This document shows, piece by piece, positions 4,165-54,580 of a stretch of DNA of 64,000 nucleotides (position 1 is the stretch's first letter; the number at the start of each line of letters is the position of its first letter). Under the pieces are notes generated by a model that searched no databases, was not told where the DNA came from, and saw only the letters and a program-made list of their open reading frames with translations. The DNA is from Torpedo marmorata (taxonomy: Eukaryota). The stretch spans positions 25,296,001 to 25,360,000 of the forward strand of contig OZ360233.1 in NCBI GenBank assembly GCA_977017645.1, written 5' to 3'. The translations under genes and the position numbers were made by a program.

Positions 4165-5190
4165 TTTCCTCTCTCTCAGGGGGATATTTGCACACTGAAC
4201 GGTGCATCTCAGTCCCTGTCTCTCAGGGGGATATTCATACACTCACTGGCATCTCTCATTTTCTCTCTTTCAGGGGGATATCTGTACACTGACCAATGTT
4301 TCTCATTTTCTCTCTTTCAGGGGGATATCTATACAGTCCCTCTCTCTCAGGACGATATCTGTACACTGACTAGTGTGTCTCAGCTTCTCTCTCAGGAGGA
4401 TATTTGTACACCTTGAAGAAGGGCTCAGGCCCGAAACGTCCGTTATATATCTTTACCTCATACGGACACTGCGAGACCTGCTGAGTTCCTCCAGCATTTC
4501 TCTGTTTATACTACAATCACAGTGGCTGCCCACTTTCGTGTTTCACTCGAGATTTGTACACTGGTGTCTCCGTGTCCCTCTCCCTCAGGAGGATATAAGT
4601 ACACTGACCGGTATCTCTCAGTCCCTCGCTCTCTCAAAGGGGTTTTCTGTGCACTGACCAGTGTCTCTCAGTTCTCCTCTCAGGAGGATATCTGTCCACT
4701 TACCAGTGTTTCTCAGTCCCTCTCTCAGCGGGATATCTGATCACTGACCAGTGTCTATTACTTTGATGAAGGGCTCAAGCCAGAAACGTCGGTTATGTAT
4801 TTCTACCTTTGCCACATAAAAGGCACTGTTTGACCTGCTGAGTTTCTCCAGCATTTGTGTTTTTTACTTCAACCACAGTGTCTACAGATTTTCGTGATTT
4901 ACTAGTGTCTTTCAGTCGCTCTCCAGGGGGGATATCTGAACACTGACCAGTGTCTCTCAGGGGGATATCTGTGCACTGACTGGTGTCTCTCAGTACCCCT
5001 CTCAGGGGGATATCTGTACACTGACCAGTGTCTCTCAGTACCCCTCTCAGGGGGATATCTGTACACTGACCAGTGTCGCACAGTACCTCTCTCAGGGGGA
5101 TATCTGTACACTGACCAGTGTCTCTCAGTCCCTCTCTCAGGGGTATATCTGTACACTGAGTGGTGTTTCTCAGTACCCCTCTCACGGGGA
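4165..5190. repeat. Tandem array of about 39-bp units (ctctcagggggatatctgtacactgaccagtgtctctcagtacc-like) upstream of the V promoter, interrupted by two short repeats
   Basis: Unit visible repeatedly, cleanest at 4920-5190; repetitive ORF (DTGQCTDIPLR)n. Confidence 0.9.
4412..4548 (+). mobile_element. Short interspersed repeat, probably a Penelope-type terminal fragment; related copies at about 4762-4900, 7101-7240, 7963-8088, 44568-44710
   Basis: Shared motif gaagggctcaggcccgaaacgtc...gacctgctgagttcctccagca; the 7963-8088 copy is flanked by the 14-bp direct repeat tgaacgcagaggat. The family name is inference. Confidence 0.6.
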
Positions 5191-5300
5191 TATGAGTGAA
5201 TTGAAAAGTGTGATAGATCTTTAATCCGGATCTTATCATGACCGCTGACCTGCCGCCTGTTGCAGAGACAAACGTCTTTTGGGGAATTGAAATCTCTGCT

Positions 5301-5398
5301 GGGGGCGGGGACAGGAAGCAGCGCCTCTGGTTTCAGTGGGTGGGAGCCTGTTCAAGCCGCGGCTCCCTCTCTCCCTCTCTCCCTCTTCCCTATTTAAA
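5301..5398 (+). promoter_or_regulatory. Putative V promoter: GC box, Ets-like ACAGGAAG, TATA-like TATTTAAA
   Basis: gggggcgggg 5301-5310, acaggaag 5311-5318, tatttaaa 5391-5398, about 90 bp before the leader ATG in a CpG-rich segment; no ATGCAAAT octamer seen. Confidence 0.5.
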
Positions 5399-5486: not shown

Positions 5487-5532
5487 ATGGGGATCGCTCC
5501 TTATCTCTTTCTCTTTCTGTCCTGTCTGGCAG
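5487..5532 (+). CDS. IgW: IgW heavy chain leader exon (MGIAPYLFLFLSCLA)
   Basis: ATG, hydrophobic signal peptide, phase-1 donor GCAG|gtgggt. Confidence 0.93.
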
Positions 5533-5650: not shown

Positions 5651-5948
5651 GCGTGCGGTCCGACGTCGTGCTGACACAGCCCGCGTCAGTGGTGAAAAAG
5701 CCCGGGGAGTCCCACAAACTGACCTGTGAGACCAGTGGGTTCAGTCTCAGCAGCTACTACATGCACTGGGTTAAACAGGTCTCCGGGAAAGGGCTGGAAT
5801 GGTTGGTGGCGTATTATTCCGAAAGTTACAAGTATTACGCGCCTGGAATCCAAAACCGATTCACCGCTTCCAAGGGCAGCACCACGGTCAACCTTCAAAT
5901 CAACAGCCTGAGTGTGGGGGACACGGCCACCTATTACTGTGCGAGAGA
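5651..5948 (+). CDS. IgW: IgW VH exon (GVRS DVVLTQPASVVKKPGESHKLTC...WVKQ...DTATYYCAR), unrearranged
   Basis: Acceptor ctgacag|, open frame, both canonical Cys, FR2 Trp, YYCAR; FR1 and short FR3 as recalled for elasmobranch IgW V. Confidence 0.95.
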
Positions 5949-5987
5949 CACAGTGAGAGGAACCAGGGCTGGGCCGCTGCAAAAACC
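5949..5987 (+). promoter_or_regulatory. V recombination signal sequence, 23-bp spacer
   Basis: cacagtg 5949-5955, 23 nt, gcaaaaacc 5979-5987. Confidence 0.95.
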
Positions 5988-6339
5988 CAGCGAGAGCGCC
6001 TGCCCTCAGGGCGCTGAGTGAGAGGGCAGCAGTGATCACCACAGTGATTCCCGGCCTTGCTGTGCCGCCGTCGGCCCTCCCTGGAATAGGAGGCGAGTGG
6101 TCCGCCGGAATTGCCGGGAAGAGAAGGCGGAAGGACCGAGGGGATCACCGGATCGATTCACAGAGCAGGTCGGAGCCAAGCGCCGTGGATGGGACTGGAG
6201 TCACGGAACCAGGAGCACGAAGCTGTGGCCCGTCCCAGGACACACAAAGCTGTGGATGGGAGAGGATCTGTGAGCCGGGGCAGTGTCGGTGCGGTTTAAG
6301 TGAGGAGTGAGTGGGATCGGAGACAGTGAGAGGGGCGGA

Positions 6340-6367
6340 GGTTGTTGTACGGCGGTGTGTCACAGTG
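6340..6367 (-). promoter_or_regulatory. RSS with 12-bp spacer, 5' of the D(J) segment
   Basis: ggttgttgt 6340-6348, 12 nt, cacagtg 6361-6367 (CACTGTG on the minus strand, CAC intact). Confidence 0.9.
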
Positions 6368-6433
6368 ACTATACTGGGTATATTTACTATCTCGACTACT
6401 GGGGGAAAGGAACCTCGCTGACAGTGACTTCAG
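6368..6433 (+). CDS. IgW: Pre-joined D-J segment (YTGYIYYLDYWGKGTSLTVTS)
   Basis: D-like actatactgggtat runs directly into a J with WGxG and donor tcag|gtaag; no intervening RSS. Confidence 0.88.
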
Positions 6434-8446
6434 GTAAGACCCAACTTCTCCATTCCACCCTTCCCCAATTTGTATTTTATTAATTTGCGGTTTGAGCGAA
6501 TCGGTGATTCACCTGAGACCAGTGAGATATTTGGAGCAATTACTTGAATCTCCCCGAGACGGACGGATTCTCCAGAGTGACTGGGATCGGGTTTTCCTGT
6601 CGGCTGCTTTCTTGGTTATAACCGTTAGATTAAGACATGGCTGAGGGAACGGTCCGCAAATGTGTGATCCGGTTAAAGTGTGAATAACCCCAGGGTACAA
6701 GTGGAGGTCAGTCCAGTCCTGTCATGTCCGGTGTGAGGCCCGTCCCAGGACACACAAAGTATTGGGCAGCCCCGGCTGCAGAGAGAATATCCCAGGATTA
6801 AATGATGGGATGAGAGTTTTATTCTCTGATGGGTGGGGAGGTGGGGTAACGGTGGGAAGAATGTTGTCCTTGAGAAAGCAGCGGGAGGGAGCGGTGCAGG
6901 GAAGGAGAGGCAGGAAATTGAACACAAAATTCCTTCATAGGTTCCAGGCTGCTTTGTATTGGTGGGTGGGGGAGGTGGGTGAGGTGTAAATATTCAGTCA
7001 ATGGTCGGTCATCGTGGAGGGTTTATGGGAACTTTTGTTGACGCAGCAATTGTGTGATCTGGATCACACTGACTGCAAGGTGGGAGTAGGTTATGTACAG
7101 GAGTGAAACACGAAGGTCTGCAGATGCTGTGATTATAGTAAATACGCACAGAAAGGCTGGAGGAACTCAGCCGGTCTCGCAGCGTCAATAGGAGGTAACG
7201 ATATTTTACCGACGTTTGGTGTCTGAGCCCTTCTTCAAGGGAAAGCAAAAAAACAGGAAGGCATCGGAATGAAGACTGGAGACTGGAGAGAGAAAGGGGG
7301 AAGGATGGGAGGGGGAGGAGTCCAGACCGAAATGTGTTAGTTGGATATAAGAGGAAAGGTGAGAATTGATATTGGCTCTGTGGAAGGAGACGGGGGAAAG
7401 GGAAGAGAGAGAGAGACAGAACTGGGGGAAAGGCAACAGGGGGAAGAAGTAGTGGGGGTGGAGGTGGGGGGTTTAACCGAAACCGGAGATAACAGTAAAG
7501 AATGAACAGCAGAGATCCTCCTTTCGTCTGGATACGGGGAAAAGCAGTTGGAGCAATGTTTGACTATTCAATTGAGTAATTCGCTCAGTTGAATGGCAAG
7601 CACTGACACAGTTGATGAATAGTCTCGATCTGTGCGCAGTCATTCAATGGAACTATTTATTTTATAAATCCAGAAAACACTCACTCAAAGATATCCCATG
7701 AAATAACCCAGGGCATTCAGAGCCTGAGTTAAACGCAGAATTAAGCTCCCCCTGCACTGTCCTGTCAGTGACGGATCAGATATAAAGTTCCTTTTGAACT
7801 TTCTTCACACTCCCAGAGCACGGGTTTGACACTGGGTGAAGTTCCCTCCACAGTCTCCTGTTATACCCTCCAGAACATTGACGGAAACTGAGACATGGAA
7901 TACAACTCTCCATGTTGTTCTGTCCAACACTCCCAGGGTAAATGCGACTGAACGCAGAGGATAGTAAATCACGAAAATCTGTAGACACCGTGGTTGAAGT
8001 AAAAAACACAAATGCTGGAGAAACTCAGCAGGTCAAACAGTGTCTTTTATGTAGCAAAGGTAGAAATAGATAACCGACGTTTCGGGCTTGAACGCAGAGG
8101 ATTCTTTGGATTGGAAAACAAATTGATGCCGTTTGATGTCGAAAGTTCTCAACAATGAATCGTTTGCACAGTGAGAAAATGTTACTGAATATCCGGTCGA
8201 GATGTGATTTTCAGCAGGACAGATTTCCTTTGTCTTTTCTCTTGAATTGCAATATTTAGAGATGGTCCAGAACTCAAAGCATTTCATTCTACATTGTGTA
8301 TGAACATGGCTCAGAGTTTAGAGTTAATCTGCCTGACTTTTCTGATGTTCTTTCCACTTCCTGAGATCAGGCCAAGTCCAAACCGAGCTGCTGATTCCCA
8401 CATCCCCAGGTTATTCTTTTGGAAAATCCAGCACTCTGTTGTCAAA

Positions 8447-9040
8447 CCCCACTCCACCGCAGCACCGTGCTGCCCATCCAGAAAATCTCCACTCCACCCC
8501 AGCACCCTACTGTCCCACCCAGAAAATCTCCCCTCCACCCAGCACCCTGCTGTCCTACCCAGAAAATCTCCCCTCCACCCCAGCACCCTACTGTCCCACC
8601 CAGAAAATCTCCACTCCACCCCAGCACCCTGCTGTCCCACCCAGAAAATCTCCCCTCCACCCAGCACCCTGCTGTCCCACCCAGAAAATCTCCCCTCCAC
8701 CCAGCACCCTGCTGTCCCACCCAGAAAATCTCCCCTCCACCCCAGCACCCTGCTGTCCCACCCAGCTCCTGTCATCTCCACCCCAGCACCCTGCTGACCC
8801 ACCCAGCTCCTCTCCCCTCTCCACCCCAGCATCCTGCTGACCCACCCAGCTCCTCTCCCCTCTCCACCCCAGCACCCTGCTGACCCACCCAACTCCTCTC
8901 CCCTCTCCATCCCAGCACCCTGCTGTCCCACCCAGCTCCTATCCCCTCTCCACTCCAGCACCCTGCTGTCCCACCCAGCTCCTCTCCCCTCTCCACCCCA
9001 GCACCCTGCTGTCCCACCCAGCTCCCTTCCCCTCTGCACC
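8447..9040. repeat. Minisatellite of 33-35-bp units (ccacccagcaccctgctgtcccacccagaaaatctccc and ...agctcctctcccct variants), C-rich on +
   Basis: About 17 consecutive units directly visible, in the J-CH1 intron. Confidence 0.95.
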
Positions 9041-14489: not shown

Positions 14490-14810
14490 AGGTTGAGTCA
14501 TTACCATCAGTCTTCATCGTCCCTCCCTGCCACAGAGGAGCTGACCAAGAGTTCAGCCTCCTGTGTCTGGTCAAGGATTATCAGCCTGAGATCATCAACC
14601 AATCATGGTCCACTACCAGTGGGGACATCACCGGAATCAAGAAATATCCAGCAGTGTTGGGGCAGAATGCAAAGTACACAATGAGCAGCTTGCTCCGAGT
14701 CCCTGCGGCGGATTGGAAAAGCAACAATATCTACTACTGCAAGGCAGAGTACAAGACAAACAAGTTCGTGAAAGTGGCTATCGTGCTAGCAGATATCATG
14801 CCAGCTCAAC
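14490..14810 (+). CDS. IgW: IgW CH1 exon (VESLPSVFIVPPCHRGADQEFSLLCLVKDYQPEIINQSW...YYCKAEYK...IMPAQ); not in the ORF track
   Basis: Hand translation: acceptor ttttcag|, 321 nt open, C1-set Cys/Trp/Cys, extra N-terminal Cys (probable L-chain bond), donor caac|gttagt. Confidence 0.93.
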
Positions 14811-15805: not shown

Positions 15806-16111
15806 CTCAAAGTCCAAAGCTCATGCCTCTTGTTCCATCCCTGGAGGTTGTCCACAATCAAACAACTGCTATCCTGGGCTGTGTGATATCAGGATTCTCT
15901 CCTGACAAGATTCAGGTGACCTGGAAAAAAGCCGGATCAGAGCAAGTGGGCACTCTTTTCCCTTCCATGAGGAGAACCGATGGTGGGTTTGAAACAGTTG
16001 CCTACCTGATCTTGTCTGTGGACGAATGGACCAGCAAACAGGAATATTCTTGTGAAGTGACCCACGCACCTACCAGCTTCAGTGAGAAGGTCATCATGAG
16101 ATATCAAGGGG
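15806..16111 (+). CDS. IgW: IgW CH2 exon
   Basis: tttacag| QSPKLMPLVPS...LGCVISGFSPD...YSCEVTH...RYQG |gtgagt; 306 nt, phase 1. Confidence 0.95.
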
Positions 16112-16762: not shown

Positions 16763-16875
16763 GCTGTTCGACATGTGTGCCGATATTCTTCCTCCAGACT
16801 AATGTCAATGTGACATTCTCTGATGGTACCACCCGACCGTATCATTGTTCAAAAGGAAAGTGTCAAATAAAGTGA
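16763..16875 (+). CDS. IgW: IgW short-form Cys-rich secretory tail exon (GCSTCVPIFFLQTNVNVTFSDGTTRPYHCSKGKCQIK*)
   Basis: Acceptor tttccag|, phase 1; four Cys and an NVT sequon; matches the recalled IgW-short tail pattern; AATAAA at 16866-16871 overlaps the last codons. Confidence 0.9.
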
Positions 16876-19441: not shown

Positions 19442-19759
19442 TTGAGACAAAACGTCCTGAGGTCAGACTGCTGCCTCCACCATACGAAGAGTCCAAGCAT
19501 AGGAACACGGCTACTCTCGAGTGTGTTGTCTCGGGATTCTACCCAGACCACATTGACGTCACCTGGAAGAAAGATCACTCCCTGATCTCCTCAAACACCA
19601 GCTCAACACCGACTGCTCTGGAGCAGGCTGGGACTTTCAGTGCCAGCCACTTCCTGACTGTGGGTTCACAGGAGTGGAAGGCAGGCTCAGTCTTCAGCTG
19701 CACAGTGTCTCATCCCTCCTCCAACACCAGCATCACAAAGAAAGTGAGGAACGACCAAG
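19442..19759 (+). CDS. IgW: IgW CH4 exon
   Basis: ttccag| VETKRPEVRLLPP...LECVVSGFYPD...FSCTVSH...NDQ |gtaggg; 318 nt; 85-nt upstream intron. Confidence 0.95.
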
Positions 19760-22897: not shown

Positions 22898-25800
22898 AAA
22901 CATGGACTTTTTTTAAATCTATATGTTACAAATCCAGATGATGAACAATTTATTCAAGATACTTTTTTACATTTATCTGAGGCTAAGGAAAATATTTTAA
23001 TTGGTGGAGATTTTAACTGTTGTCTTAATGCAAATATGGACAAAACTACTAGAACATCTGTTAGACCTAAAATAGTTAAAAGAATGATTAATTTAATGGA
23101 TGACCTGAATCTGGTAGATATCTGGAGGAAGTTAAATCCTAGAGAAAAAGATTATTCATTTTATTCTTTTAGACATAATTCATTTTCAAGGATTGATTTG
23201 TTTTTGATATCTTCACAAGTTCAGGACAGAGTAACTCAAATATCTTATAAAGCAAGAATAATCTCAGATCATTCACCTTTGTTAATGACATGTATAATTC
23301 CAGAGAAAGAAAAAACTGTATATAATTGGAGATTAGATTCTTCTTTATTAAATAGAAAAGACTTTTGTGAATATATAAGAAAAGAAATTCAGGAATTTTT
23401 AAGAATTAATAATAATTCAGTTAATGATAGATTTATAATTTGGGAATCTTTAAAAGCATATTTAAGAGGTTTGATAATAAGTTTCTCGGCAAAAATTAGA
23501 AAAGATTATTTGAAAGAAGAAGAAAAATTGGAAGGGGAGATTGAATTTATGGAAAATGATTTTCAAAGAAATAAAACAATTTTTAAGAGACAACGTTTAA
23601 TTAGGAAAAAACTGCATTATAATATATTACAAACACGAAAAATAGAAAAATTAATTGGTAGAACAAAACAAAGATATTATGAATTGGGAGAAAGAGCACA
23701 TAAAGTTCTAGCATGGCAATTAAAAAAAGAACAAGTTTCTAAAACTATAAATGCTATTAAAAAAAAAGTACTGGTGAAATAACCTATAAACCTCAAGAAA
23801 TAAACGATTCCTTTAGAGAATATTATCAGAATTTATACACTTCACAGATTGATCAAGATGTTACAAAAATTGATAATTTTTTATCTAAAATTACATTGCC
23901 TAAATTAAATAATTTTAATAGAGATTTGTTAGATTTACCTATTACAATGAGAGAAGTAGTTGAAGCTTTATCGACATTGAAAAGTGGTAAATCTCCTGGT
24001 GATGATGGATTTCCGATAGAGTTTTATAAGAAGTTTAAAGATTTACTGATACCTATATATATGGAAGTATTGACTCAAATAAAGGAAACTCATTTATTAC
24101 CGAAAACATTTTTAAATGCTGTTATTACAGTTATACCAAAGAAAGATAGAGATGTATTAAAAACTGAGTCATACAGACCTATATCACTGTTGAATGTAGA
24201 TTATAAATTAATGGCAAAAATTTTGACAAACAGATTAGCTAAGTTTTTACCGCTTTTAATACATTCAGATCAAGCAGGATTTATTAAAAATAGATATTCG
24301 AAGGATAATATAGCAAGATTAATAAGTTTAATTAATTTGCAAAAAAGGAAACAGGATTTACCGTTGGTGATAACATTAGATGCAGAAAAAGCATTTGATA
24401 GATTAGAATGGAAATTTTTATTTAAGGTTTTAGAGAAATATGGGTTTGGAAATACTTTTGTAAATTGGATTAAGACTATATATAAGGAACCTACAGTTAG
24501 AGTAATTACAAATGGTCAGATATCATCTAAATTTTCCTTGACGCAATCAACAAGACAAGGATGTCCTTTATCACCTTTATTTGTATTGGCAATAGAACCG
24601 CTGGCTGAAATGATTAGGAAAGATATCAATATAAATGGGATTAAAGTAGGTGCAGAAGAGCATAAAATTAGTTTATTTGCAGATGATGTATTAATATATA
24701 TGACGAAATCTATTGGATCGCTTCAACAATTAGCTAAGATACTGAGGGAGTATGGTGAGATATCTGGTTATAAAATAAATTCAGATAAGAGTGAAATAAT
24801 GGCTTTATCTCAAGGAGATTATACTAAATGTAAAGAAGTTACAGGATTTAAATGGGCTAAAGAAGCAATTAAATATTTGGGAGTTAAAGTAGATACAAAA
24901 TTGGAAAATTTATATAAATTAAATTATATACCTCTATTTCAGAAATTAAAGAAAGATTTGGAAAATTGGAAAGATTTACCTATAACCCTAATGGGAAGAG
25001 TGAATTGTATTAAAATGAATATCTTTCCAAGAGTTCAATACCTTTTTCAATCTATACCTTTTGGAATTCCTCAAAAATTTTTTAAAGATTTAAAAATCAT
25101 TGTTAGAAAATTTTTATAGAAAGGAAAATTAGCAAGGGTAAGTATGGATAAATTAATTTGGGAATATGAGATGGGTGGATTACAACTCCCCAATTTTCAA
25201 TATTATTTTAAGGCAGCACAATTAAAGTTTATTAATGAATTTTTTGATTTAACTAAATCTACTGCTTGGATTAATATAGAATTGAATAATATAGGGGAAA
25301 GATATAAGGAAGATATTATTTATAAATGGAATTCTAAATTATTATTAGTTAAAAAGAAAAAATCACCGATTATTAAACATTTACTGGAAATCTGGACTCA
25401 GTTAGACAATGAGATAGGACGAAAAGGGTCATTATCTTTGAATATGCCATTGTATCAGAATTTATTGTTACCTTTTTCTATTGATAATCAATTTTTAAAA
25501 CTATGGTTTCAAAAAGGAATTAAGAAGATTAAAGATTGTTTTGAGGCTGGAAGATTTGTTACATTCTCTAGGTTGAAAGAAAAATTTGGAATAACGGATA
25601 ATACGATTTTGGCTTATTATCAGGTTAAAGGATTTTTAGTTGAGAAATTGGGGAATCAATTAATAACTCCAAGACAGGATGGATTAGAATTATTAATTAC
25701 TAATGGAAATGTTAACAAGTTTATATCACTTCAGAGAAAGATGCCTAAGGTAGGATTGCATAAATCAAGATTAAATTGGGAATCAGATTTAAATATTAGT

Positions 25801-26659
25801 ATAGATGAAAAACATTGGAAAGAATTATGTAAATTGAGTATGACCAAAATTATTAATGTTAGATATAGATTAGTACAATATAATTTTTTTCATCAATTAT
25901 ATTTAACACCTAAAAAATTAAAGAAATTTAATCCGGCACTATCAGATATGTGTTTTAGATGTAGGGATGAAATAGGTTCTTTTGTACACTGTACATGGTC
26001 ATGTTTAAAAATTCAAAATTTTTGGTCTAAAGTTAAGGATTGTTTGGATAGAATTTTTAATATTACGGTTCCAATGGACCCTATGTTCTTTTTATTTGGA
26101 GATATTAAAAAATTTAGTATTAGAAATAGATTGAATATGTATCAAATAGAATTTTTACGAATTGTTTTAGCGGTTTCAAAAAAATGTATCGCTATTACTT
26201 GGAAATCAGATTTAGATTTGAGTTTAGATAGATTACATGCAGAATTACGTTCTTGTGTACCATTGGAAAAAATTATATATAATTTACATGATAAATATCA
26301 TTTCTTTTTGAAAATTTGGAGCCCTTATATGAGAATTATGGGTATGAATTAATTCTCTAGAAGTTGGTACCGCTGGCAAAAATAACCTCCCATATATAAA
26401 TAGAATTAGCTTGTAATTTGCTTTCTCCTCACTTTAACTCTTTAATTCTTTATTATTCAACTCTTTTCTTTTTTTTTCTTTATAACTAACATTCTTTTTT
26501 TTTCTTCTTTTTTTTTTAGAATAGTGCTGGGGGGGTTGGGGAGGGGAGGGTGGGAGGTAATATATCACATGTATTTTAAATTATATACTATTTTTGATTC
26601 ATGTATTTTGTGATTTTAAAATTTAAATAAAATTATTTTAAAAAAACCAAAAAAAAAAA
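22898..26659 (+). mobile_element. L1-clade LINE, 5'-truncated within the endonuclease, inserted in the Gypsy integrase
   Basis: GGDFN and SDH (EN), FADD (RT), C-terminal CFRC...HCTWSC, AATAAA plus A tail; TSD aaccactagttg at 22886-22897 and 26660-26671. Confidence 0.95.
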
Positions 26660-30285: not shown

Positions 30286-30606
30286 GTGACTGTACAGATA
30301 CCCACCCCTCAGTTACTTTAAGGAAACCTTCCTTCGAAGAGATCTGGACGAACAGGACGGCGACCATTCTGTGTGAGGTGGTCCATGGTGATTTAGAGGG
30401 ATTCAGGGTAACCTGGCAGGTGGACGGAAGTGAGAGAGAAGATGGTGTGAGAACTCAGGGTCCAAACAGGAACGGAGGTGAAGACATGATCATCAGCAGA
30501 TTGACGGTCCCCGCTGCAGAGTGGGAGATTGGGACTGAGTACTCGTGCGTGGCGGAGGACAACAGTTTGCCAACACCGGAGAAGAGGTCCATTAAGAAGG
30601 CCACAG
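30286..30606 (+). CDS. IgW: IgW CH5 exon
   Basis: ctcccag| GDCTDTHPSVTLRKPSFEEIW...ILCEVVH...YSCVAE...KAT |gtacgt; 321 nt. Confidence 0.95.
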
Positions 30607-32375: not shown

Positions 32376-32761
32376 GTGGAGTTGTGACTTCTCCTCACAT
32401 CTACCTCCTCCCCCCTTCATCAGATGAGTTAGAGGCAGATCAGTCTGCAACCCTGATGTGCCTCGTCAACAAGTTCTCTCCTGCAGACATCTACGTGGCC
32501 TGGATGGCCAATGACACCCTTCTGAAGACTGGGTACGTGAACCAGCCAGTGACCGAGGTCACCAGAAGTGGCTGGAACACGATGACCAGTCAGTTGAAGG
32601 TTTCTCCAGAAGAGTGGAATCGTGGCACCACTTTCTCCTGCCTGGTGGGACATGAGTCGCTCACAACTAATCTGTTCAGAAGCATCAATAAATCTCACAG
32701 CAAACCCACCCTCGTCAATCTCTCACTTGTTCTCACTGATAGTTTTACATCTTGTGCATGA
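32376..32761 (+). CDS. IgW: IgW CH6 exon with long-form secretory tailpiece (...KSHSKPTLVNLSLVLTDSFTSCA*)
   Basis: ttcccag| acceptor; terminal C domain FSCLVGHESL; tailpiece with NLS sequon and penultimate Cys. Confidence 0.96.
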
Positions 32762-42000: not shown

Positions 42001-44897
42001 TGGATAATTGGAAAGATTTACCCATAACTTTAATGGGAAGAGTGAATTGTATTAAAATGAATATTTTTCCAAGAGTTCAATATCAATATTCCTCAAAATT
42101 TTTTTAAAGATTTAAAAATTATTATTAGAAAGTTTCTATGGAAAGGAAAATTGGCAAGAGTAAGTATAGATAAATTAACTTGGGAATACGAAATGGGTGG
42201 ATTACAACTTCCTAATTTTCAATATTATTATAAGGCAGCACAATTAAAATTTATAAATGAACTATTTGATTTAACTAAAAACACGGCTTGGATTAATATA
42301 GAATTGAGTAATATAGGAGAAAGAAATAAGGAAGATATTATTTATAAATGGAATTCTAAATTATTATTGATTAAAAAGAAAAAGTCACCGATTATTAAAC
42401 ATCTATTGGAAATTTGGAATCAATTAGATAATGAAATAGGACGAAAAGGATCAATTTCTTTAAATATGCCATTATATCAGAATTTATTATTACCATTTTC
42501 TATTGATAATCAATTTTTAAAATTATGGTATCAAAAAGGAATTAAGAAGATCAAAGATTGTTTTGAGGCAGGAAGATTTGTTACTTTTACTAGATTGAAA
42601 GAAAAATTTGGAATAATGGATAATACAATTTTGGCTTATTATCAAGTTAAAGGATTTTTAGTTGAGAAATTAGGGAATCAATTAATATCCCCTAGACAAG
42701 ATGGGTTAGAGTTATTAATTACTAATGGAAATGTTAACAAATTTATATCGCAAATGTATAAATTACTTCAGAAAAAAATGCTTAAAGTAGGACTACATAA
42801 ATCTAGATTAAATTGGGAATCAGATCTAAATACTAGTATAGATGAACAACACTGGAAAGAACTATGTAAACTGAGTATGACTAAGATTATTAATGTTAGA
42901 TATAGATTAGTACAATATAATTTTTTTCATCAATTATATATAACACCTAAAAAATTAAAGAAATTCAATTCGGCATTGTCAGATATGTGTTTTAGATGTA
43001 AAGATGAAATAGGTTCTTTTGTACATTGTACATGGTCGTGTTTGAAAATTAAAAATTTTTGGTCTAAAGTCAAGGATTTTTTAGATAGAATTCTTAATAT
43101 TACGATTCCAATGGATCCTATGATATTTCTGTTTGGAGATATTAAAAAAATCAGTATTAGAAATAGATTGAATATGTATCAAATAGAATTTTTACGAATT
43201 GTGTTAGCAATTTCAAAAAAATGTATTGCTATTACTTGGAAATCAGACTTAGATTTAAATTTGGATAGATTACATGCAGAGTTACGCTCGTGTATACCAT
43301 TGGAAAAAATTACGTATAATTTACGAGACAAATATCATTTCTTTCTGAAAATTTGGAGCCCATACATGAGAATTATGGGTATGAATTAATTCTCTAGAAG
43401 TTAGTACCGCTGACAAAGTAACCTCCAATATACAAGTAGAGTTAGCTTGAAATAGTTTTCTCCTCACACTAACACTAACTTTCTTAACTTTATTATTCAA
43501 TCTATTTCTTTTCTTTTAACTAACATTTTTATATTCTATTTTTTTTTTTTTTTATTAGATAGCGTGGGAGGGTTGGGGAGGGGAGGGTGGGAAGGGGGGG
43601 TGGTAATATATCACATGTATTTTCAATAATACACTATTTTTTTTGATATATGTATTTTGTGATTTTAAAAAATTAAATAAAATTATTTTAAAAAAATAAA
43701 AAAAAATTATATTGAACTTATCTATATCTAACGTTGATAATCTTCGTCATACTTAATTTACATAATTCTTTCCAGTGATTTTCGTCTATATTTACATTCA
43801 GATCTAATTCCCATTTTAATCTTGATTTATGCAGTCCTACTTTAGGCATTTTCCTCTGAAACAATTTATACATTTGAGAAATAAATTTATTAATATCTCC
43901 ATTAGTAACTAATAATTCTAATTCATTTTGTCTTGGTAAAGTCAAAGCATAACCTAATTTCTCAGTCAAAAAAGCTTTAATTTGATAATAAGCCAGAAAA
44001 GTATTATCTAATACATTAAATTTATCTTTCATTCTTTGAAACGTAATAAATTTCCCAGCTTCAAAACAATCACTAATCTTCTTAACTCCTTTTTGAAACC
44101 AAATTTTAAATAATTGATTATTAATAGTAAATGGAATAAGTTCATTTTGATATAAAGGCATCTTTGAAGAAATTAATCCTTTTGCTCCTATTTCCTTATC
44201 CGTCTTATTCCATATTTCTAACAAATGTTTAAAAATGGGCGAATTCTTCTTTTTTATTGATATTAATTTAGAATCCCATTTATAAATAATTTCTTCTTTG
44301 AGATCTTCTCCTATATTATTTAATTCTATCTTAATCCAAGCAGAAGATTTAGTTGAATCAAAAAAATTCATTGACAAATTTTAATTGAGCTGCTTTATAA
44401 TAATTTTGAAAATTAGGAAGTTGTAAACCACCCATTACATAATTCCAAGTTAATTTTTCCATACCTACTCTTGCTAACTTTCCTTTCCATAAAAATTTCC
44501 TAATATTTAAATTTAAATCTTTAAAAGATTTTTGAGGAATTCCATAAGGAATTGATTGAAAAATATAAAAGTAAACACGAAAATCTGTAGACACCTTGGA
44601 TGAAGTAAAAAACACAAAAGCTGGAGAACTCAGCAGGTCAAACAGTGTCTTTTATGTAGCAAAGGTAGAAATACATAACCGACGTTTCAGGCTTGAGCCC
44701 TTCTTCAAAGTATACTGAATTCTTGGAAAAATATTCATTTTAATACAATTTACCCTTCCCATTAAAGTTATAGGTAAATCTTTCCAATTCTCTAAATCTT
44801 TCTTTATTTTCGCAAATAATGGTAAATAATTTAATTTATATAAATTATCCAATTTTATATCAACCTTTACTCCCAAATATTTAATACCCTCCTTTGG
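39091..44897 (-). mobile_element. Second L1 3' fragment nested in the outer L1
   Basis: New poly-T/3'UTR begins at 39091; near-duplicated target aattttt(t)ctttctt on both sides; ORF2 pieces 39468-39668 and 43718-44876. Confidence 0.8.
39808..43700 (+). mobile_element. Third L1, near-complete but frameshifted ORF2, nested in the second
   Basis: Starts in EN (SSFNSKARGVAIL); ORFs 40079-43389; TSD aaaaaaattatattg at 39792-39806 and 43701-43715. Confidence 0.9.
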
Positions 44898-46473
44898 AAT
44901 TTTTCTTTCTTGTTGATATTAATTTAGAATCCCATTTATAAATAATTTCTTCTTTGGAATCTTCTCCTATATTACTTAATTCTATTTTAATCCAAGCAGA
45001 AGATTAAGTTGAATCAAAAAATTCATTAATAAATTTTAGTTGAGCTGCTTTATAATAATTTTGGAAATTAGGAAGTTGTAAACCACCCATTTCATAATTC
45101 CAAGTTAATTTTTCCATACCTACTCTTGCTAACTTTCCTTTCAATAAAAATTTTCTAATAATTGAATTTAAATCTTAAAATTTTTTTTGAGGAATTCCAT
45201 AAGGAATTGATTGAAAAAGATATTGAATTCTTAGCAAAACATTCATTTTAATACAGTTTACTCTTCCCATTAAAGTTATAGGTAAATTTTTCCAATTTTC
45301 TAAATCTTTCTTTATTTTCACAAATAATGGTAAATAATTTAATTTATATAAATTAGTCAATTTTGTATCGACCCTTATTCCCAAATATTTAATTCCTTCC
45401 TTTGCCCATTTAAATTGTGTGATTTCTTTACATTTACTATAATCCTCTTGTGATAATGCCATAATTTCACTTTTATCAGAGTTAATCTTATATCCAGATA
45501 TTTCCCCATATTCTCTCAATAACAGAGACAATTGTACTAAGGATGTAGTAGATTTTGCCATATATATCAATACATCATCTGCAAACAAACTAATTTTATG
45601 TTCTTCCATTCCAACGTTAATACCAACTATTTTAGGATCTTTTCTAACTAATTCTGCCAAAGGTTCTATCGCCAAAATAAATAATGCTGGTGACAAAGGA
45701 CATCCTTGTCTAGTAGATCGAGTCAAAGGAAATCTTGAAGAAGGTTGTCCATTTGTAACTACTTTAGCTGATGGTTCTTTATATATAGTTTTAATCCAAT
45801 TAATAAATGTATTTCCAAAACCAAATTTCTCCAATACCTTAAATAAAAAATTCCACTCTAATCTATCAAAAGCCTTTTCAGCATCTAAAGATAAAACTAA
45901 TGGTAAATCTTCCTTCTTTTTATGTAAATTGATTAAACTAATCAATCTAGCTATATTATCTTTTGAATATCTATTTTTAATAAAACCAGCTTGATCTACA
46001 TGAATTAAGTCTGGTAAATAACTAGCCATTCTATTTGCTAAAATCTTTGCCATTATCTTGTAATCTAAATTTAATAATGAAATAGGTCTATAAGATTCAG
46101 TTTTAAATACATCTCTATCTGTTTTTGGTATGACTATAATTATTGCATTTTAAAAAGTATCTGGTAAAGAGTGAGTTTCCGTAATTTGATTCAATATACC
46201 TCCATATATGGAGGTATTTCGAGTCTCCTTACTGGTTTGGAAGCGGTGCAGAGGAGGTTCATCAGGTTGATTCCATAGATGAAAGGGTCAGCCTGTAAGG
46301 GGAGATTGAGTCACTGGGACTATAGTCGCTGGAATTAAGAAGAATGAGAGGGGAACTTTCAGAAACGTAAAATTATGAAAGGGATAGATCGTATCATGGC
46401 AGAAAATTTATTTCCACTGGTAGGTGAGACTATATCGAGGGAACCTAACCTCAAGGTTAAGGGCAGTAGATTA

Positions 46474-47251
46474 TTAATGTTAGATATAGATTAGTACAAT
46501 ATAATTTTTTTCATCAATTATATTTAACACCTAAAAAACTAAAGAAATTTAATCCGACATTATCAGGTTTATGTTTTAGATGTAATAAAGAAGAAGGTTC
46601 TTTTGTACATTCTACATGGTTTTGTCCAAAAGTTTATGATTTTTGGTTGAAAGTTAAAAAATTTTTAGATAAAGTATTTAAGATTACATTTCCAATGGAT
46701 CCTATGATACTTTTGTTCGGAGATATTAGAAAATTTAGTATTAAGATGAAATTAAATATGTATCAAATAGAATTTTTGCGAATTGCTTTAGCTGTTTCAA
46801 AGAAATGTATTGCTATTACTTGGAAATCTGATTTAGGATTAGAAAGATGGCATGCAGAACTTCGTTCGTGTATACCACTTGAAAAAATTACTTATAATTT
46901 ACGTAATAAATACCATTTTTCTTAAAAATTTGGAGCCCATATATGAAAGTTGTTGGTTTAAGAATTTGAAGATCTCTGGGTATCGGATCTGCTGACATAC
47001 CTGACCTCCACAATAGAATTAGTTTATAGATGTATGTTTTTTAGATTGGCATCCTCCTTACTCTATCTTTTTCTTTCTTTTTTTTTCTTTCTCTATTTGT
47101 ATTTTATATTTTTTATTTTTATTAGATTAGTAGGGTTGGGGAGGGGAGGGTGGGAGGGGGGGTGAAAATGTATCACAAATATTTTGATAATTTCATATTT
47201 TATTTTATGTATTTTGTGATTTAAAATTTTAAATAAAATATTTTTTTAAAA
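46474..47251 (+). mobile_element. Short L1 3' fragment inserted in CR1
   Basis: 21-bp TSD aaggtt(a/c)agggcagtagatta at 46453-46473 and 47252-47272. Confidence 0.88.
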
Positions 47252-49106
47252 AAGGTTCAGGGCAGTAGATTAAAGATGTAAGTGAGGATTAATTCCTTTT
47301 GACAGAGAGGATTGTATTCACTGGAATTAAGAAAAATGAGAGGGGATCTTATAGAAATATGCAAAATTATAAAACAGATAGATAACAGCGGCAGGAATGT
47401 TCCTCCTCTGACAGGTGAAAGTCAAACAAGGGGACATCTCATGAAGACGGAGGAGTATATTTAGGACAGAGATGATGAGGAACTGCTTTTCAGAGAGCGT
47501 AGCAAATCTGTGGAATTCCCTGTTAAAGGAAGTTGTGGAGACCTGTTCATTAGATCTATTCAAGATAGATTTTTGCGTTGTTGGGGAATCAAGGGTTATG
47601 GGGAACAGACAGGTATTTGGAACTGAGTCCAGGTCCAGTTCAGCTATGATCTTGTTGGATGGCGGAGCAGGCTCAATGGCCTACTCCTGCTCCTATTTAT
47701 GTTCTTTGGTATACCAAACATACCAAGTATTTCACAGATAAACCTGATCCCAAGCCTGAGGACAGGTGCCCAGAAATGTGATTAAAACCATTTGAATCAT
47801 TCACACCATTTGGACCTCAGTGGCAAGGCCATCATTTCAGCCCATCCTGACCTATCCTTGAGGTGAACACTTGCTGGCTCATTCTGAGGACAGTCACAAG
47901 TGGTTCTGGAGTCACATAGTGGCCAGTCCACGAATGGATGGCAGATTTCCTACTCACAAGGAAAGAATGAATCAGATGGTTCAAAGAATCCAGCTCTTAT
48001 TGCCAGAGTTCTTGACACTGGATTTTGTGCAGAATCGATTGTAGAGAACTTGAACTCTCAACTGCTTTGTTAGGATTTGAACACATCTCCAGTCCAGCAG
48101 CTGAATCAATCTGCTACATTACCCCATATAGTCATTGCAAGGAGCAGTTTGAAGAAGGACAGATGGGATTCACTAAGGTTCAGTGAGTGAGTTCCAGTGC
48201 TTGTGACGGCTGAAGGCACAGTCACTGATGCTGTGACAACGGGAGTCCAACTTTCAGAGAGACCAGAGTGGAATTGAATTGTTTATTGCCATGTGTACTG
48301 AGACACAGAGAAAAACTTCATAATGCATGCTATCCAGGTAGGTCAAACCCTCCCAAGAACAGGAAGTAGTACAAGATAAAACAGAGTGTAGTTTAAAGAG
48401 AAAAGATCAGTGAGAACATTGTCAGTAATTCTGACAGTGTGAGAGTTGAAATTAAAGAGAGTGGACTGATTGTGGTGAATGCAAGGAGCGAATCCGCAAG
48501 GAACAGCTCACAAAATGTTGCTACTCTCACGCGCCGTGGAGAATCGTAATGTTTTTCAGAGGGTTGTTTTGTTGGTGAAACATACAGAGATGGCAAGAGG
48601 CATGACCACAGGAGATCTGAATGTCAGCACTGGAGTTTTCACACCAGAGGTATCCCAGGTTCAGTCTGAACAGAGAGGAGGGGCCTCACTCATTCAGCAG
48701 GCCCAATGTCATAAATCAGTCTGCAGACCCACACAGGTGCTGAGACAACAGGAATTCGTGCAATGTTTCCTCTGGTCACAAACTGCATCTTTCACCGCAT
48801 TTCACCTTCTGGAGATTGCACTTATTAACATTAGGGCAGCTAAACGTCCCTCAGCTTGGAAATATCTCACAGACCCTGCTGTGACCCGACTGGTTCCCAG
48901 CGAAATGTGCTCCTGGTGTTTGATTTTATTTTCTCAGTCAATGCTACAAGCAGAGATGAGCAACTCACCATTTAAAAAAACCCTGACTTCATTCTAATAT
49001 ACAGTTTACTGCAGATTGACTCTCAGTTTAAGTCTGGGCCGAAGTTGAGAAGCCAGCTGACACCAGACATAGTCCAGTTTGTAAGTTTTCTATTTCTCAT
49101 CTGCAG

Positions 49107-49405
49107 AATTGTCCGTCTTGTTACAAAATCCATCCACTGAAGAGATTTGGATCAACAAGACCGCTACTCTGGTGTGCCTGGTTGTGGGTGCTGATCTGAG
49201 CCAGGTCGAAATCTACTGGCAGGTGAGCGGAAGGGAGAGAATGAAAGGAAATGTGACCCAACAACCGAGCGAGGAAGGGACACTAAGCAGAGTGATCAGC
49301 CAATTCCAGACCAGTGTGGAGGAGTGGTGCAGTGGGGCAGTGTACACTTGTTCTGCCCAAGGACCTTCTTCATCCTCACCAGTGTCAGCACAGACAGTAC
49401 CAAAG
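49107..49405 (+). pseudogene. IgW: CH3-like exon, copy 1; a 4-nt deletion near the 3' end puts the donor out of phase
   Basis: cagacagtaccaaag versus cagacagagagtaccaaag in copies 2 and 3; 299 nt. Confidence 0.8.
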
Positions 49406-49493
49406 GTGGGCAAAATGTCAGCGATTAGATGGACAACATCTGTGACCTTGAGTAAAAATGTTTACGTCTCCTTTCTTTGCTCGTCTGTTCCAG

Positions 49494-49811
49494 TCGAGAT
49501 AAAAGGGCCTGAGGTCAGACTGCTGCCACCACAACATGAAGACACCAAGAGTAGGAACACGGCCACCCTCGAGTGTGTGGTCTCTGGATTCTACCCGGAC
49601 CTCATAAACGTCACCTGGGAGAAAGACAGCTCCCTGATCTCCTCCAACACCCGCACGACACGGACTGCTCTGGAGCAGGCAGGGACTTTCAGTGCCAGCC
49701 ACTTTCTGACTGTGAGGACAGAGGAGTGGAAGAAAGGCTCGGTCTTCAGCTGCACAGTGTCTCATCCCCCCTCCAACACCAGTATCAGCCGGGAGGTGAA
49801 AAACATGCAAG
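49494..49811 (+). CDS. IgW: CH4-like exon, copy 1, intact
   Basis: 318 nt, ttccag| and |gtacgg, about 77% aa identity to CH4 by hand count; expression unproven. Confidence 0.75.
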
Positions 49812-50349
49812 GTACGGTCCTGGGATTCACTCCAATCTTGACAACCTTTGCCCATGTCACAAACTGGGGCCAAATTAGTTCACTCGTATTGTCGTGGTTG
49901 TGTGAATGAGCTGATAACCTTAATGCATAGATGAGCAACAATTATATTCACTTTCACATCTTCCAAAACACCTCAATAGCCCGTCACAGAGGAGAGCAAT
50001 GCTGCTGTCCTTGACTCTGTTCACAAGCCTCTAGAGAATGGCTTCAATGCACAACTTGATGGGACAGTGTGGGATTTTAAACTACAAAGTAACAACAGGA
50101 AATAAGTTGCCGTTGTCAGTCGAACGGAGAAACTGAAAGGAACATAAAATTAACAGGTTCACTGATGTCCTTTTGTAAAGGACACCTGCCTTCTACACAC
50201 TTTCCCCTTATCCTTCAGACCCACACCAAACTCATCAGTGTCTCTGATAGACCTGGCAAGTCAGTCAGTGGAGCAGAGCAAGAAATGCCGGCCTTGTCAG
50301 CGAGTCTCACCCCACGAACAAAAGATGACATAATGACGGGAAGATCAAG

Positions 50350-50645
50350 GTTTGGACACCAGCATCTCTTCAAAGTTGAGCAAGTCTGCCTGTCCCAGAA
50401 CTGCAAGGGGAGGATGACGTCCACTTTTTGTGAGCAGCGTCTCAGTGATTTCGAGCAGTTCAGGGTAACCTGGGAGATAGATGGAAGTGAAGGCTGCTGG
50501 AAGACTCGGGGCTCAAAGAGGAACAGGGTCAAAGGCATCTCAGCCAACTCATGATCCACTGCAGATTGGGGGAGTGTGGTTGAGTACTTGTCTTTGTTCA
50601 ATTGTTTATCAACACTGGAGAAGAGGTCCATCAGGAAGTCTCAAC
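50350..50645 (+). pseudogene. Decayed CH5 copy 1
   Basis: FCEQRLSDFEQFRVTWEIDGSE...EKRSIRK aligns to CH5 LCEVVHGDLEGFRVTWQVDGSE...EKRSIKK; in-frame stop, second Cys lost. Confidence 0.85.
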
Positions 50646-50974
50646 TCGTCTGAATGGAGCTCAGTTGGAGTCTGTTTGTAATGGGGAGATGTTCAACCAT
50701 CCAGTGTCAGATTTACTGGAGTTCTCTGAGGATATAATGAGCGGAGTGAATAGAGGGGAACAGGTTCATGTTGTGTACTTGGACTTCCAGAAAGTGTTTG
50801 AAAGGTGCAGCATAAATACATCCACGAGATAAGGATGGATGGAGTTGGAGGAAACATATTAGCGTGGATGGACAATTGGTTCACCAATAAAAGGCAGAGA
50901 AGTGAGATAAATGGGTGTTTCACTGGTTGGCAATCAGTGGTGAGTGGAGTAAGTTGTCTATTTCTCATCTGCAG

Positions 50975-51277
50975 CATTGTCTGTCCTTTTACAAAATCCA
51001 TCAACTGAAGAAATTTGGATCAACAAGACTGCTACTCTGGTGTGCCTGGTTGTGGGTGCTGATCTGAGCCAGGTCCAAATCTACTGGCACGTGAGCGGAA
51101 GGGAGAGAATGAAAGGAAATGTGACCCAACAACCGAGAGAGGAAGGGACACTAAGCAGAGTGATCAGCCAATTCCAGACCAGTGTGGAGGAGTGGTGCAG
51201 TGGGGCAGTGTACACTTGTTCTGCCCAAGGATCTTCTTCATCCTCACCAGTGTCAGCACAGACAGAGAGTACCAAAG
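50975..51277 (+). CDS. IgW: CH3-like exon, copy 2, intact
   Basis: 303 nt, ctgcag| and |gtgggc, canonical Cys/Trp; expression unproven. Confidence 0.78.
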
Positions 51278-51365
51278 GTGGGCAAAAGGTCAGCGATTAG
51301 ATGGACAACATCTGTGACCTTGAGTAAAAATGTTTATGTCTCCTTTCTTTGCTCGTCTGTTCCAG

Positions 51366-51683
51366 TCGAGATAAAAGGGCTTGAGGTCAAACTGCTGCCA
51401 CCACCACATGAAGACACCAAGAGTAGGAACACGGCCACCCTCGAGTGTGTGGTCTCTGGATTCTACCCGGACCTCATAAACGTCACCTGGGAGAAAGACA
51501 GCTCCCTGATCTCCTCCAACACCCGCACGACACGGACTGCTCTGGAGCAGGCGGGGACTTTCAGTGCCAGCCACTTTCTGACTGTGAGGACAGAGGAGTG
51601 GAAGAAAGGCTCGGTCTTCAGCTGCACAGTGTCTCATCCCCCCTCCAACACCAGTATCAGCCGGGAGGTGAAAAACATGCAAG
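51366..51683 (+). CDS. IgW: CH4-like exon, copy 2, intact
   Basis: 318 nt, canonical splice sites, open frame. Confidence 0.78.
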
Positions 51684-52221
51684 GTACGGTCCTGGGATTC
51701 ACTCCAATCTTGACAACCTTTGCTCATGTCACAAACTGGGGCCAAATTAGTTCACTCGTATTGTCGTGGTTGTGTGAATGGGCTGATAACCTTAATGCAT
51801 AGATGAGCAACAATTATATTCACTTTCACATCTTCCAAAACACCTCAATAGCCCGTCACAGAGGAGAGCAACGCTGCTGTCCTTGACTCTGTTCACAAGC
51901 CTCTAGAGAATGGCTTCAATGCACAACTTGATGGGACAGTGTGGGATTTTAAACTACAAAGTAACAACAGGAAATAAGTTGCCGTTGTCAGTCGAACGGA
52001 GAAACTGAAAGGAACATAAAATTAACAGGTTCACTGATGTCCTTTTGTAAAGGACACCTGCCTTCTACACTCTTTCCCCTTATCCTTCAGACCCACACCA
52101 AACTCATCAGTGTCTCTGCTAGACCTGGCAAGTCAGTCAGTGGAGCAGAGCAAGAAATGCCGGCCTTGTCAGCGAGTCTCACCCCACGAACAAAAGATGA
52201 CATAATGACGGGAAGATCAAG

Positions 52222-52517
52222 GTTTGGACACCAGCATCTCTTCAAAGTTGAGCAAGTCTGCCTGTCCCAGAACTGCAAGGGGAGGATGACGTCCACTTTT
52301 TGTGAGCAGCGTCTCAGTGATTTCGAGCAGTTCAGGGTAACCTGGGAGATAGATGGAAGTGAAGGCTGCTGGAAGACTCGGGGCTCAAAGAGGAACAGGG
52401 TCAAAGGCGTCTCAGCCAACTCATGATCCACTGCAGATTGGGGGAGTGTGGTTGAGTACTTGTATTTGTTCAATTGTTTATCAACACTGCAGAAGAGGTC
52501 CATCAGGAAGTCTCAAC
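52222..52517 (+). pseudogene. Decayed CH5 copy 2
   Basis: Same lesions as copy 1, offset by 1872 bp. Confidence 0.85.
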
Positions 52518-52846
52518 TCGTCTGAATGGAGCTCAGTTGGAGTCTGTTTGTAATGGGGAGATGTTCAACCATCCAGTGTCAGATTTACTGGAGTTCCCTG
52601 AGGATATAATGAGCGGAGTGAATAGAGGGGAACAGGTTCATGTTGTGTACTTGGACTTCCAGAAAGTGTTTGAAAGGTGCAGCATAAATACATCCACGAG
52701 ATAAGGATGGATGGAGTTGGAGGTAACATATTAGCGTGGATGGACAATTGGTTCACCAATAAAAGGCAGAGAAGTGAGATAAATGGGTGTTTCACTGGTT
52801 GGCAATCAGTGGTGAGTGGAGTAAGTTTTCTATTTCTCATCTGCAG

Positions 52847-53149
52847 AATTGTCTGTCCTTTTACAAAATCCATCCACTGAAGAGATTTGGATCAACAAGA
52901 CCGCTACTCTGGTGTGCCTGGTTGTGGGTGCTGATCTGAGCCAGGTCCAAATCTACTGGCAGGTGAGCGGAAGGGAGAGAATGAAAGGAAATGTGACCCA
53001 ACAACCGAGAGAGGAAGGGACACAAAGTAGAGTGATCAGCCAATTCCAGACCAGTGTGGAGGAGTGGTTCAATGGGGCAGTGTACACTTGTTCGGCCCAA
53101 GGAACTTCTTCATCCTCACCAGTGTCAGCACAGACAGAGAGTACCAAAG
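52847..53149 (+). CDS. IgW: CH3-like exon, copy 3, intact
   Basis: 303 nt, canonical splice sites; about 57% aa identity to CH3 by hand count. Confidence 0.78.
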
Positions 53150-53237
53150 GTGGGCAAAAGGTCAGCGATTAGATGGACAACATCTGTGACCTTGAGTAAA
53201 AATGTTTACGTCTCCTTTCTTTGCTCGTCCGTTCCAG

Positions 53238-53555
53238 TCGAGATAAAAGGGCCTGAGGTCAGACTGCTGCCACCACAACATGAAGACACCAAGAGTAGGA
53301 ACACGGCCACCCTCGAGTGTGTGGTCTCTGGATTCTACCCGGACCTCATAAACGTCACCTGGGAGAAAGACAGCTCCCTGATCTCCTCCAACACCCGCAC
53401 GACACGGACTGCTCTGGAGCAGGCGGGGACTTTCAGTGCCATCCACTTCCTGACTGTGAGGACAGAGGAGTGGAAGAAAGGCTCGGTCTTCAGCTGCACA
53501 GTGTCTCATCCCCCCTCCAACACCAGTATCAGCCGGGAGGTGAAAAACATGCAAG
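53238..53555 (+). CDS. IgW: CH4-like exon, copy 3, intact
   Basis: 318 nt, canonical splice sites, open frame. Confidence 0.78.
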
Positions 53556-54290
53556 GTACGGTCCTGAGATTCACTCCAATCTTGACAACCTTTGCCCATG
53601 TCACAAACTGGGGCCAAGTTAGTTCACTGAAACATCGGTGTGGCATTGTTGTGCTTGAGTGAGTGAGCTGATAACCTCAATGCATAGAACAGCAACAATT
53701 ATATTCACTGATGTGATTTCACATGGAAACATAGAAAACTTACAGCACAATACAGGCCCTTCGGCCCACAAAGTTGTGCCGAACATATCCCTACCTTACA
53801 AATTACTACACTTACCTATAGTCATTTTTCTAAGCTCCACGTACCTATCCAAAACTCTCTTTAAAGACCCTGTCGTATCCGCCTCCACCACATCTTCCAG
53901 ACACCTCAATAGCCCGTCACAGAGGAGAGCAACGCTGCTGTGCTTCATTATGCTCAAAAGCCTCTGGAGAATGGCTTCAACGCCAACTTGAAGGGACAGT
54001 ACAGGAGTTTAAACTAGAAAGCAACAAGAGGAAATAAGTTGCTGTTCTCAGTCGAAGTGATGGCGAAACTGTGAAAGGAACATTAGATTAACAGGTCACT
54101 GATGTCCTTTTGTAAAGGACACCTGCCTTCTACACTCTTTCCCCTTATCCTTCAGTCACACACCAAACTCATCAGTGTCTCTGATAGGCCTGGCAAGTCA
54201 GTCAGTGGAGCAGAGCAAGAAATGCTGGTCTTGTCAGCGACAGTCTCACCCCACGAGAGAAGGATGACATAATGACTACAAGATCAAGGT

Positions 54291-54580
54291 TTGGACACCA
54301 GCATCCCAGAAACTTTGAGCAAGCCTGCCTGTCGCCAGAACTGCAGGAAGAGGATGATGACCACTTTGTGTGAGCTGCCTCTCAGTGATTTTGAGCAGTT
54401 CAGAGTAACCTGGGAGATAGATGGACGTGAAGTGAAGACTCGGGGCTCAAGAGGAACAGGGACAAAGGTGTCTTCAACTGACTCACAGTCCACTGCAGAT
54501 TGGGGGAGTCGGGCTGAGTACTTGTATTTGTTCAATTGTTTGTCAACACTGGAGAAGAAATCCATCACGAAGTTTCAACA
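54291..54580 (+). pseudogene. Decayed CH5 copy 3
   Basis: DTSIPETLSKP...TLCELPLSDFEQFRVTWEIDG...EKKSITK aligns to CH5 with deletions; second Cys lost; no clear splice sites. Confidence 0.85.

Follow-up and report, generated by a model that had tools for sequence, protein, structure and literature searches.

Introduction

The joining of immunoglobulin gene segments in the germline has long been known, and IgNAR genes of type III carry pre-fused D segments. For cartilaginous fish, the portions of the literature drawn on here list the germline states VD-J, VD-DJ and VDJ (PMC5192425, PMC4279169, PMC8355894). In nurse shark NS4 light chains, RAG-like germline joining has been shown, with about five events that were judged infrequent; the germline-joined light chains are expressed in pups, and heavy-chain germline joins, according to the same source, could not be dissected (PMC2193156). 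In nurse shark IgM, V-DDJ is a normal somatic 2R intermediate of thymocytes and B cells, and the order of joining is not fixed (PMC2435157). The nurse shark gene IgM1gj is described in the reviews drawn on here as fully joined, in frame and dominant in neonates.

Here we compare with these systems a heavy-chain cluster in a 64-kb stretch of ray DNA (the window) and the array to which it belongs. The ray clusters resemble the germline-joined heavy-chain genes of horn shark and skate in cluster layout and in the presence of unjoined, partly joined and fully joined clusters in one genome (PMC5192425, PMC4279169). However, in the horn shark and skate states listed there V is already joined (in PMC5192425, under IgM), whereas in the window V is free, D1, D2 and J are fused, and the isotype is IgW. 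The configuration is that of the nurse shark IgM V-DDJ intermediate, but the latter is somatic, and that of the window stands in an assembled genome and is likely inherited (PMC2435157). The ray array and NS4 share joined genes closely similar to split genes (up to 99% identical in NS4), independent events, excised signals and trimming, and perhaps P bases; NS4, however, is a light chain with one join, whereas the ray array is a heavy-chain array with about 12 joined lineages, multi-step histories and inversions (PMC2193156). No germline V-DDJ cluster and no germline-joined IgW was found in the literature searched, parts of papers that left out key primary ones, and the novelty of the exact V-DDJ IgW state is unproven.

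Results

Organization of the window cluster

The window cluster has the following features:

5391..5398, plus strand, TATA-like box 5' of the leader (motif match, putative function; upstream sequence the same in paralogues)
5487..5532, plus strand, leader exon
5651..5948, plus strand, IgW V exon, open
5949..5987, plus strand, V 23-RSS, intact (heptamer perfect, nonamer with 1 mismatch)
6340..6367, minus strand, D1 5' 12-RSS (1+1 mismatches; same sequence in unjoined paralogues)
6368..6379, plus strand, D1 remnant (14-nt allele of loci L013 and L014 minus 2 nt at the 3' end)
6380..6383, plus strand, D2 remnant (first 4 of 8 nt; a 4-nt match, plus the demand of the 12/23 rule)
6384..6433, plus strand, J (long L013 allele minus 2 nt at the 5' end; GT donor at 6434)
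14490..14810, plus strand, C1 exon
15806..16111, plus strand, C2 exon
16763..16875, plus strand, Cys-rich tail exon for the secreted short form of IgW (2C); resembles the tail of skate protein P0004
19057..19356, plus strand, C3 exon
19442..19759, plus strand, C4 exon
30286..30606, plus strand, C5 exon
32376..32761, plus strand, C6 exon with secretory tailpiece and stop

The 12-RSS at 6340-6367 sits 352 bp past the V 23-RSS and is followed by 66 nt (6368-6433) and the GT donor. Between the V 23-RSS and the end of the 66-nt segment there is no D 3' RSS and no J RSS, only the D1 5' 12-RSS. These positions bear out the first-pass annotation, made from the window alone, which had described a V with a 23-RSS, a gap of about 350 bp and a single 12-RSS. 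The annotation had also read the fused segment as open (YTGYIYYLDYW), and in the J frame the 66 nt are indeed open and encode YTGYIYYLDYWGKGTSLTVTS. A loose scan gave 7 RSS-like matches in 64 kb, among which only the V 23-RSS and the D1 12-RSS abut immunoglobulin segments, and both are found at the same positions in paralogues. One of the others, a 23-RSS-like match at 17598, lies inside the C2-C3 intron with no V ahead and was taken as chance. Minisatellites of 45 bp and 43 bp lie on either side of the V(D)J region (4165-5193 and 8449-9021).

The six C exons are all open, with phase-1 boundaries, and are followed by the secretory tail. A long form with six C domains and a short form with two C domains and a Cys-rich tail are the IgW pattern, as set out in the part of PMC4279169 drawn on here, and the unjoined layout has the composition of an IgW minicluster, in which each cluster has a V, two D segments, a J and C exons of its own. 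By its exon organization, the window gene is an intact IgW (IgX) heavy-chain minicluster; its first-pass assignment to IgW finds support in the six-exon set and the Cys-rich 2C tail exon. A protein search with C2 returned 4 proteins with automatic names only (mu-like, gamma-1-like), the closest being from Narcine bancroftii (65-86% identity) and skate (72%), and the skate short form has a similar tail; these matches make a batoid close to the electric rays the likely source of the DNA. The search with C1 returned no matches, PDB searches returned generic immunoglobulin constant domains only, and two motif scans found no TM exon in the 64-kb window. Contigs of sequencing runs X3 and X4, from another organism and presumed to be RNA, splice J at 6433 to sequence that matches C1. 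The search of sequencing runs listed none recorded as RNA with this sequence. Judged from its sequence, the window gene looks functional.

The constant region has further peculiarities. The 3' end of C1 occurs in two length classes 15 nt apart (in the window and L031-L060), and C1 of the window (14490-14810) lacks one codon carried by the other 29 copies compared. Downstream of the secretory exon, at 49100-53600, are three tandem pairs of C3/C4-like exons with a period of about 1872 bp, beside a decayed C5-like piece near 54300; protein P0001 carries one extra C3/C4-like pair, and the tandem pairs are possibly exons of longer or membrane forms. AT-rich open reading frames lie at 25120-26349, 42061-43386, 46470-46922 and 58451-58897, and resemble what we take to be the 3' part of LINE elements.

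Parse of the fused segment

Unjoined paralogues read V-23 .. 12-D1-22 .. 12-D2-12 .. 23-J and fix the ends of D1, D2 and J and all six signals. Alignment to these unjoined IgW clusters, which the first-pass annotation had proposed as a check, defines the D1, D2 and J ends in the window, with no added bases. The unjoined cluster L013, which differs from the window at 10 of 1020 non-coding positions, has the D1 allele of the window and a long J allele starting YYYLD. Relative to L013, the window lacks 2 nt of D1, retains the first 4 nt of D2, lacks 2 nt of J, and contains zero untemplated bases. The trims at the four coding ends are 2, 0, 4 and 2 nt, and P bases are absent from the window junction, at which all ends are trimmed or flush. 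The junction stands in place of an 804-nt interval, and all breakpoints are 0-4 nt from a heptamer; the inner signals are wholly excised, the coding ends are trimmed, and the 12/23 rule is kept.

Under the 12/23 rule, signals with short spacers pair with signals with long spacers. Since the D1 3' signal (22) and the J signal (23) are both long-spacer signals, D2 is needed as a bridge, and two joins are required; a single D-J join is ruled out by the 22/23 spacers and by the D2 bases. By this parse, the state of the window is V-(D1D2J), with two joins, and not D plus J. The earlier description of a D-like core fused to J without inner RSS was correct in that the segment is fused and has no D 3' and no J RSS, but the fused parts are D1, D2 and J.

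Taken alone, the window would also fit a V-23/12-J layout, in which the 66 nt are an ordinary long J that natively bears a 12-RSS. The layout of the paralogues refutes this reading, to which we assign next to no probability. The D1 12-RSS has 15 genomic copies, which head 8 unjoined, 2 V-D-DJ and 5 V-DDJ clusters; it stands ahead of a free D1 in 10 of the 15, and free J carries a 23-RSS. With the 12-RSS belonging to D1, the description of the segment as pre-joined holds.

The window cluster is a mosaic: V is nearest to L015, the V-D interval is identical to that of L006, and the J side is nearest to L013. Because clusters are mosaic, it may be that another cluster gave rise to the window junction and passed it on by conversion. 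A patch in the V-D1 interval (about 6230-6255) has exactly the sequence of a short piece of the J intron (about 6739-6763) and displaces the usual sequence; among 15 loci, only L006, which is also V-DDJ, shares it.

Joined states across the IgW array

A search of the ray's own genome, in which 40 of 124 candidates were scored and 30 loci taken, was extended by 29 further stretches, so that 59 loci were parsed. On the contig that includes the window (C45), 23 V matches and 23 C1 matches are paired one to one over about 7 Mb. The 23 clusters comprise 7 unjoined (one with an odd V end), 2 V-D-DJ, 2 VD-D-J, 2 VDD-J or V-D2, 3 VD-DJ, 4 V-DDJ and 3 VDDJ; that is, 16 of the 23 are joined partly or fully, in 6 of 7 possible joined states, the V-DD-J state being the one not found among the 23. 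The earlier annotation had overlooked that joining of one kind or another affects most of the array. By a hand count, about 12 junction lineages are distinguishable among the 16 joined clusters, and the 5 V-DDJ clusters genome-wide have 5 different junctions. Full-length C1 matches number 34 genome-wide, and 8 of these are linked by position to unjoined clusters.

The clusters are close relatives. In the 14 loci comparable across all three regions, the divergence of the non-coding flanks from the window is 0.3-2.5%, and around C1, 20 clusters of the contig differ from the window by 1.8-2.7%. The low flank divergence implies that the joining events are recent relative to the divergence of the clusters, with the caveat that conversion may have contributed; a tree of the clusters has weak support and is blurred by conversion. 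Since unjoined copies 98-99% identical to joined ones stand beside them, each junction can be parsed. Between 22.5 and 29.5 Mb of the contig, the array turns from minus to plus strand at the window: nine clusters precede it in minus orientation, and it is the first of 14 in plus orientation. By this strand switch, the window sits at the inversion point of the array.

One out-of-frame VDDJ junction accounts for 20 of the 59 loci parsed (L026, L030, L061-L075 and L080-L082, on many small contigs), amplified in tandem with a spacing of 25-50 kb. Since J matches number 126 and full C1 matches 34, most of the amplified copies are probably without C exons.

Evidence bearing on probable germline RAG events

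Identical junctions are present at separate loci (L010 and L012; L023 and L025; L028 and L029) and in a tandem copy within L090. A V-DDJ cluster (L002) and a VDDJ cluster (L018) have a common DDJ junction and J substitution and are neighbours in the tree (support 0.78), a relation that fits duplication of a V-DDJ cluster followed by the last join in one copy. L083 contains an inversional D2-to-J join; its two heptamers meet head to head in a precise signal joint, and the inverted stretch houses an LTR element. L084 contains both L083 junctions and has lost the part flanked by 12/23 signals, and in L078 an inverted D1D2 is joined to J. Similar LTR-type retroelement sequence lies in or beside the inverted D-J intervals of L083 and L078. 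In L026 and L079, where D2 ends untrimmed, palindromic bases have been added (read by eye). Junctions that paralogues have in common, lineages that advance by steps, and inversions that left a precise signal joint behind suggest that RAG events were repeated and inherited; a germline origin of RAG type, raised in the first-pass annotation, is rated likely.

Unjoined clusters also vary at their coding ends. Eight different J 5' sequences follow a near-invariant 23-RSS (L003-L005, L007, L008, L011, L013-L016, L023, L025, L076 and L077), and one J 5' type starts with the last bases of D2, like the D2-J junction of L009. The variety of J starts suggests either open-and-shut joints or copying by which junctions returned to unjoined clusters. 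On the same contig as the window, the D1 3' end is fused to V in L008, the V RSS that follows is intact, and a full D1 lies further downstream; L016 reads V-D1-D2, then part of the D2 3' RSS, then a repeat of the D1 end and 3' RSS. Both would be explained by conversion tracts that end at heptamers, or by an excised circle that was inserted again.

The window junction itself has 1 match in the assembly, i.e. it is single-copy. The comparison with sequencing runs covered window positions 6200-6700 in four runs, all as contigs and three of them of distant match; the junction was not seen in the contigs of any of the four, contigs being a form of data that drops rare variants and shows presence, not absence. 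Run X1 (presumed DNA; the best match, possibly from another animal or species) has only the unjoined form over 6200-6700, with 813 letters between D1 and J in its contig. A contig of run X3 (another organism) with a loose end at window position 6373 has a D1-D2 join with the D2 3' signal attached, of V-DD-J type. Inheritance of the window's own junction is likely, by extension from the paralogues of the array.

The single copy, the unjoined form in X1 and the commonness of V-DDJ in shark thymocytes, as stated in the part of PMC2435157 drawn on here, would each fit an assembly that had caught a somatic lymphocyte rearrangement or suffered a deletion. However, with a mixture of cells the consensus would come out unjoined, and 16 of 23 clusters would not be joined in various ways; the shared and sequential junctions, and a retroelement in a rearranged interval, require inheritance; and a mis-assembly would not stop at four heptamers and retain the first bases of D2. 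We therefore consider a somatic or assembly origin improbable.

An inherited join could also have been made without germline RAG, if microhomology had led to a deletion or if a rearranged somatic gene or its cDNA had been copied into the germline. Conversion and templated patches are visible in the array, and few bases were added at the junctions. Of 29 distinct junction pieces, 9 can be parsed without any added base and 13 with no more than one, counts for which the automatic parser overcounts added bases where substitutions came later. Against an origin of this kind, every breakpoint keeps the 12/23 rule, and the paralogues contain a precise signal joint and inversional D-to-J joins; a processed cDNA is excluded because the leader intron, V-D interval and J intron are retained. 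We regard such an origin as, if anything, slightly more improbable than a somatic or assembly one, and germline RAG joining as the preferred reading.

Reading frames of the joined clusters

The first-pass annotation had proposed that the join provides a hard-wired, Tyr-rich, semi-invariant CDR3. Selection of the inherited join for such an antibody, probably used in early life, would be in keeping with the intact V, both remaining signals and all C exons, with the open J frame of 5 of 5 V-DDJ segments, and with the fact that, in the window, joining at the single nucleotide that the V end and the D1 start have in common would give an in-frame product (8+32-1=39 nt). However, when 20,000 joins were simulated, 77% had an open J frame, and 5 of 5 open has p of about 0.26; as a mark of selection, the open fused frame is at chance level. 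Moreover, the strings of the five V-DDJ clusters are unrelated, just one of the five would be in frame after such a 1-nt overlap join, and it is an out-of-frame junction, not that of the window, that has been amplified (20 loci). Most of the tyrosines are contributed by the germline J allele, to which the YYLDY part belongs and which L013 carries in unjoined form. The claim of a hard-wired semi-invariant CDR3 is not supported by these comparisons, and we judge selection for it unlikely.

IgM1gj, IgNAR type III and the window are alike in that germline joining narrows CDR3 diversity. In the reviews drawn on here, however, IgM1gj is a fully joined, in-frame VDJ, whereas V of the window is free, and 6 of 6 distinct full VDDJ junctions of its family (L018, L019, L021, L024, the L026 family and L084) are out of frame, all at the same offset (+1), with a chance of about 0.09. 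The frames give a hint that productive full joins may be disfavoured.

Discussion

The reading that we hold with high confidence is that the window contains an intact IgW V-(D1D2J) minicluster, fused by what were likely two RAG events in an ancestor's germline. According to the mechanism that we propose, two RAG cut-and-join events would have fused D1, D2 and J and removed the inner signals, with germ cells or the early embryo as the probable site and presumably little TdT there. One join of V-23 to 12-DDJ in a B cell would then complete the gene; the earlier statement that only one 12/23 event is left, with the D frame fixed to J, agrees with the V 23-RSS and the D1 12-RSS as the sole signals. 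Because DDJ must be read in the J frame, CDR3 would consist of one variable joint and a fixed 3' part, predicted to span up to ten residues before the J tryptophan, minus trimming. With one step instead of three, completion is predicted to be faster, and use perhaps early.

The V-DDJ state of the window is best understood as a single stage, caught in passing, of a recurring and largely neutral drift from unjoined to fully joined clusters, and the array likely documents RAG cutting that took place in germ cells again and again. Ever since germline-joined shark genes were found, it has been asked whether RAG works in germ cells at all, and how frequently. We tentatively put forward, as a hypothesis that we think somewhat likelier to fail than to hold, that RAG is a frequent, ongoing editor of the germline, which over the generations would take IgW clusters step by step from the unjoined to the fully joined state, through deletion and inversion and for the most part with no TdT, and would also remodel unjoined V, D and J ends through open-and-shut joints or copy-back by conversion, with in-frame full joins purged and duplication replacing used-up clusters. 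If this hypothesis is true, the inherited antibody locus is a birth-and-death system driven by its own recombinase.

That only 8 of 34 C1-bearing clusters are still fully unjoined bears on diversity and allelic exclusion in clustered loci. Joined and unjoined heavy-chain clusters are about 1-2.5% apart outside the V exon, and their junctions can be parsed, ordered and typed by PCR. A single V-DDJ cluster is a modest addition to the known germline-joined genes; the array is a system in which it can be tested how often, in what order and by what mechanism heavy-chain segments join in the germline.
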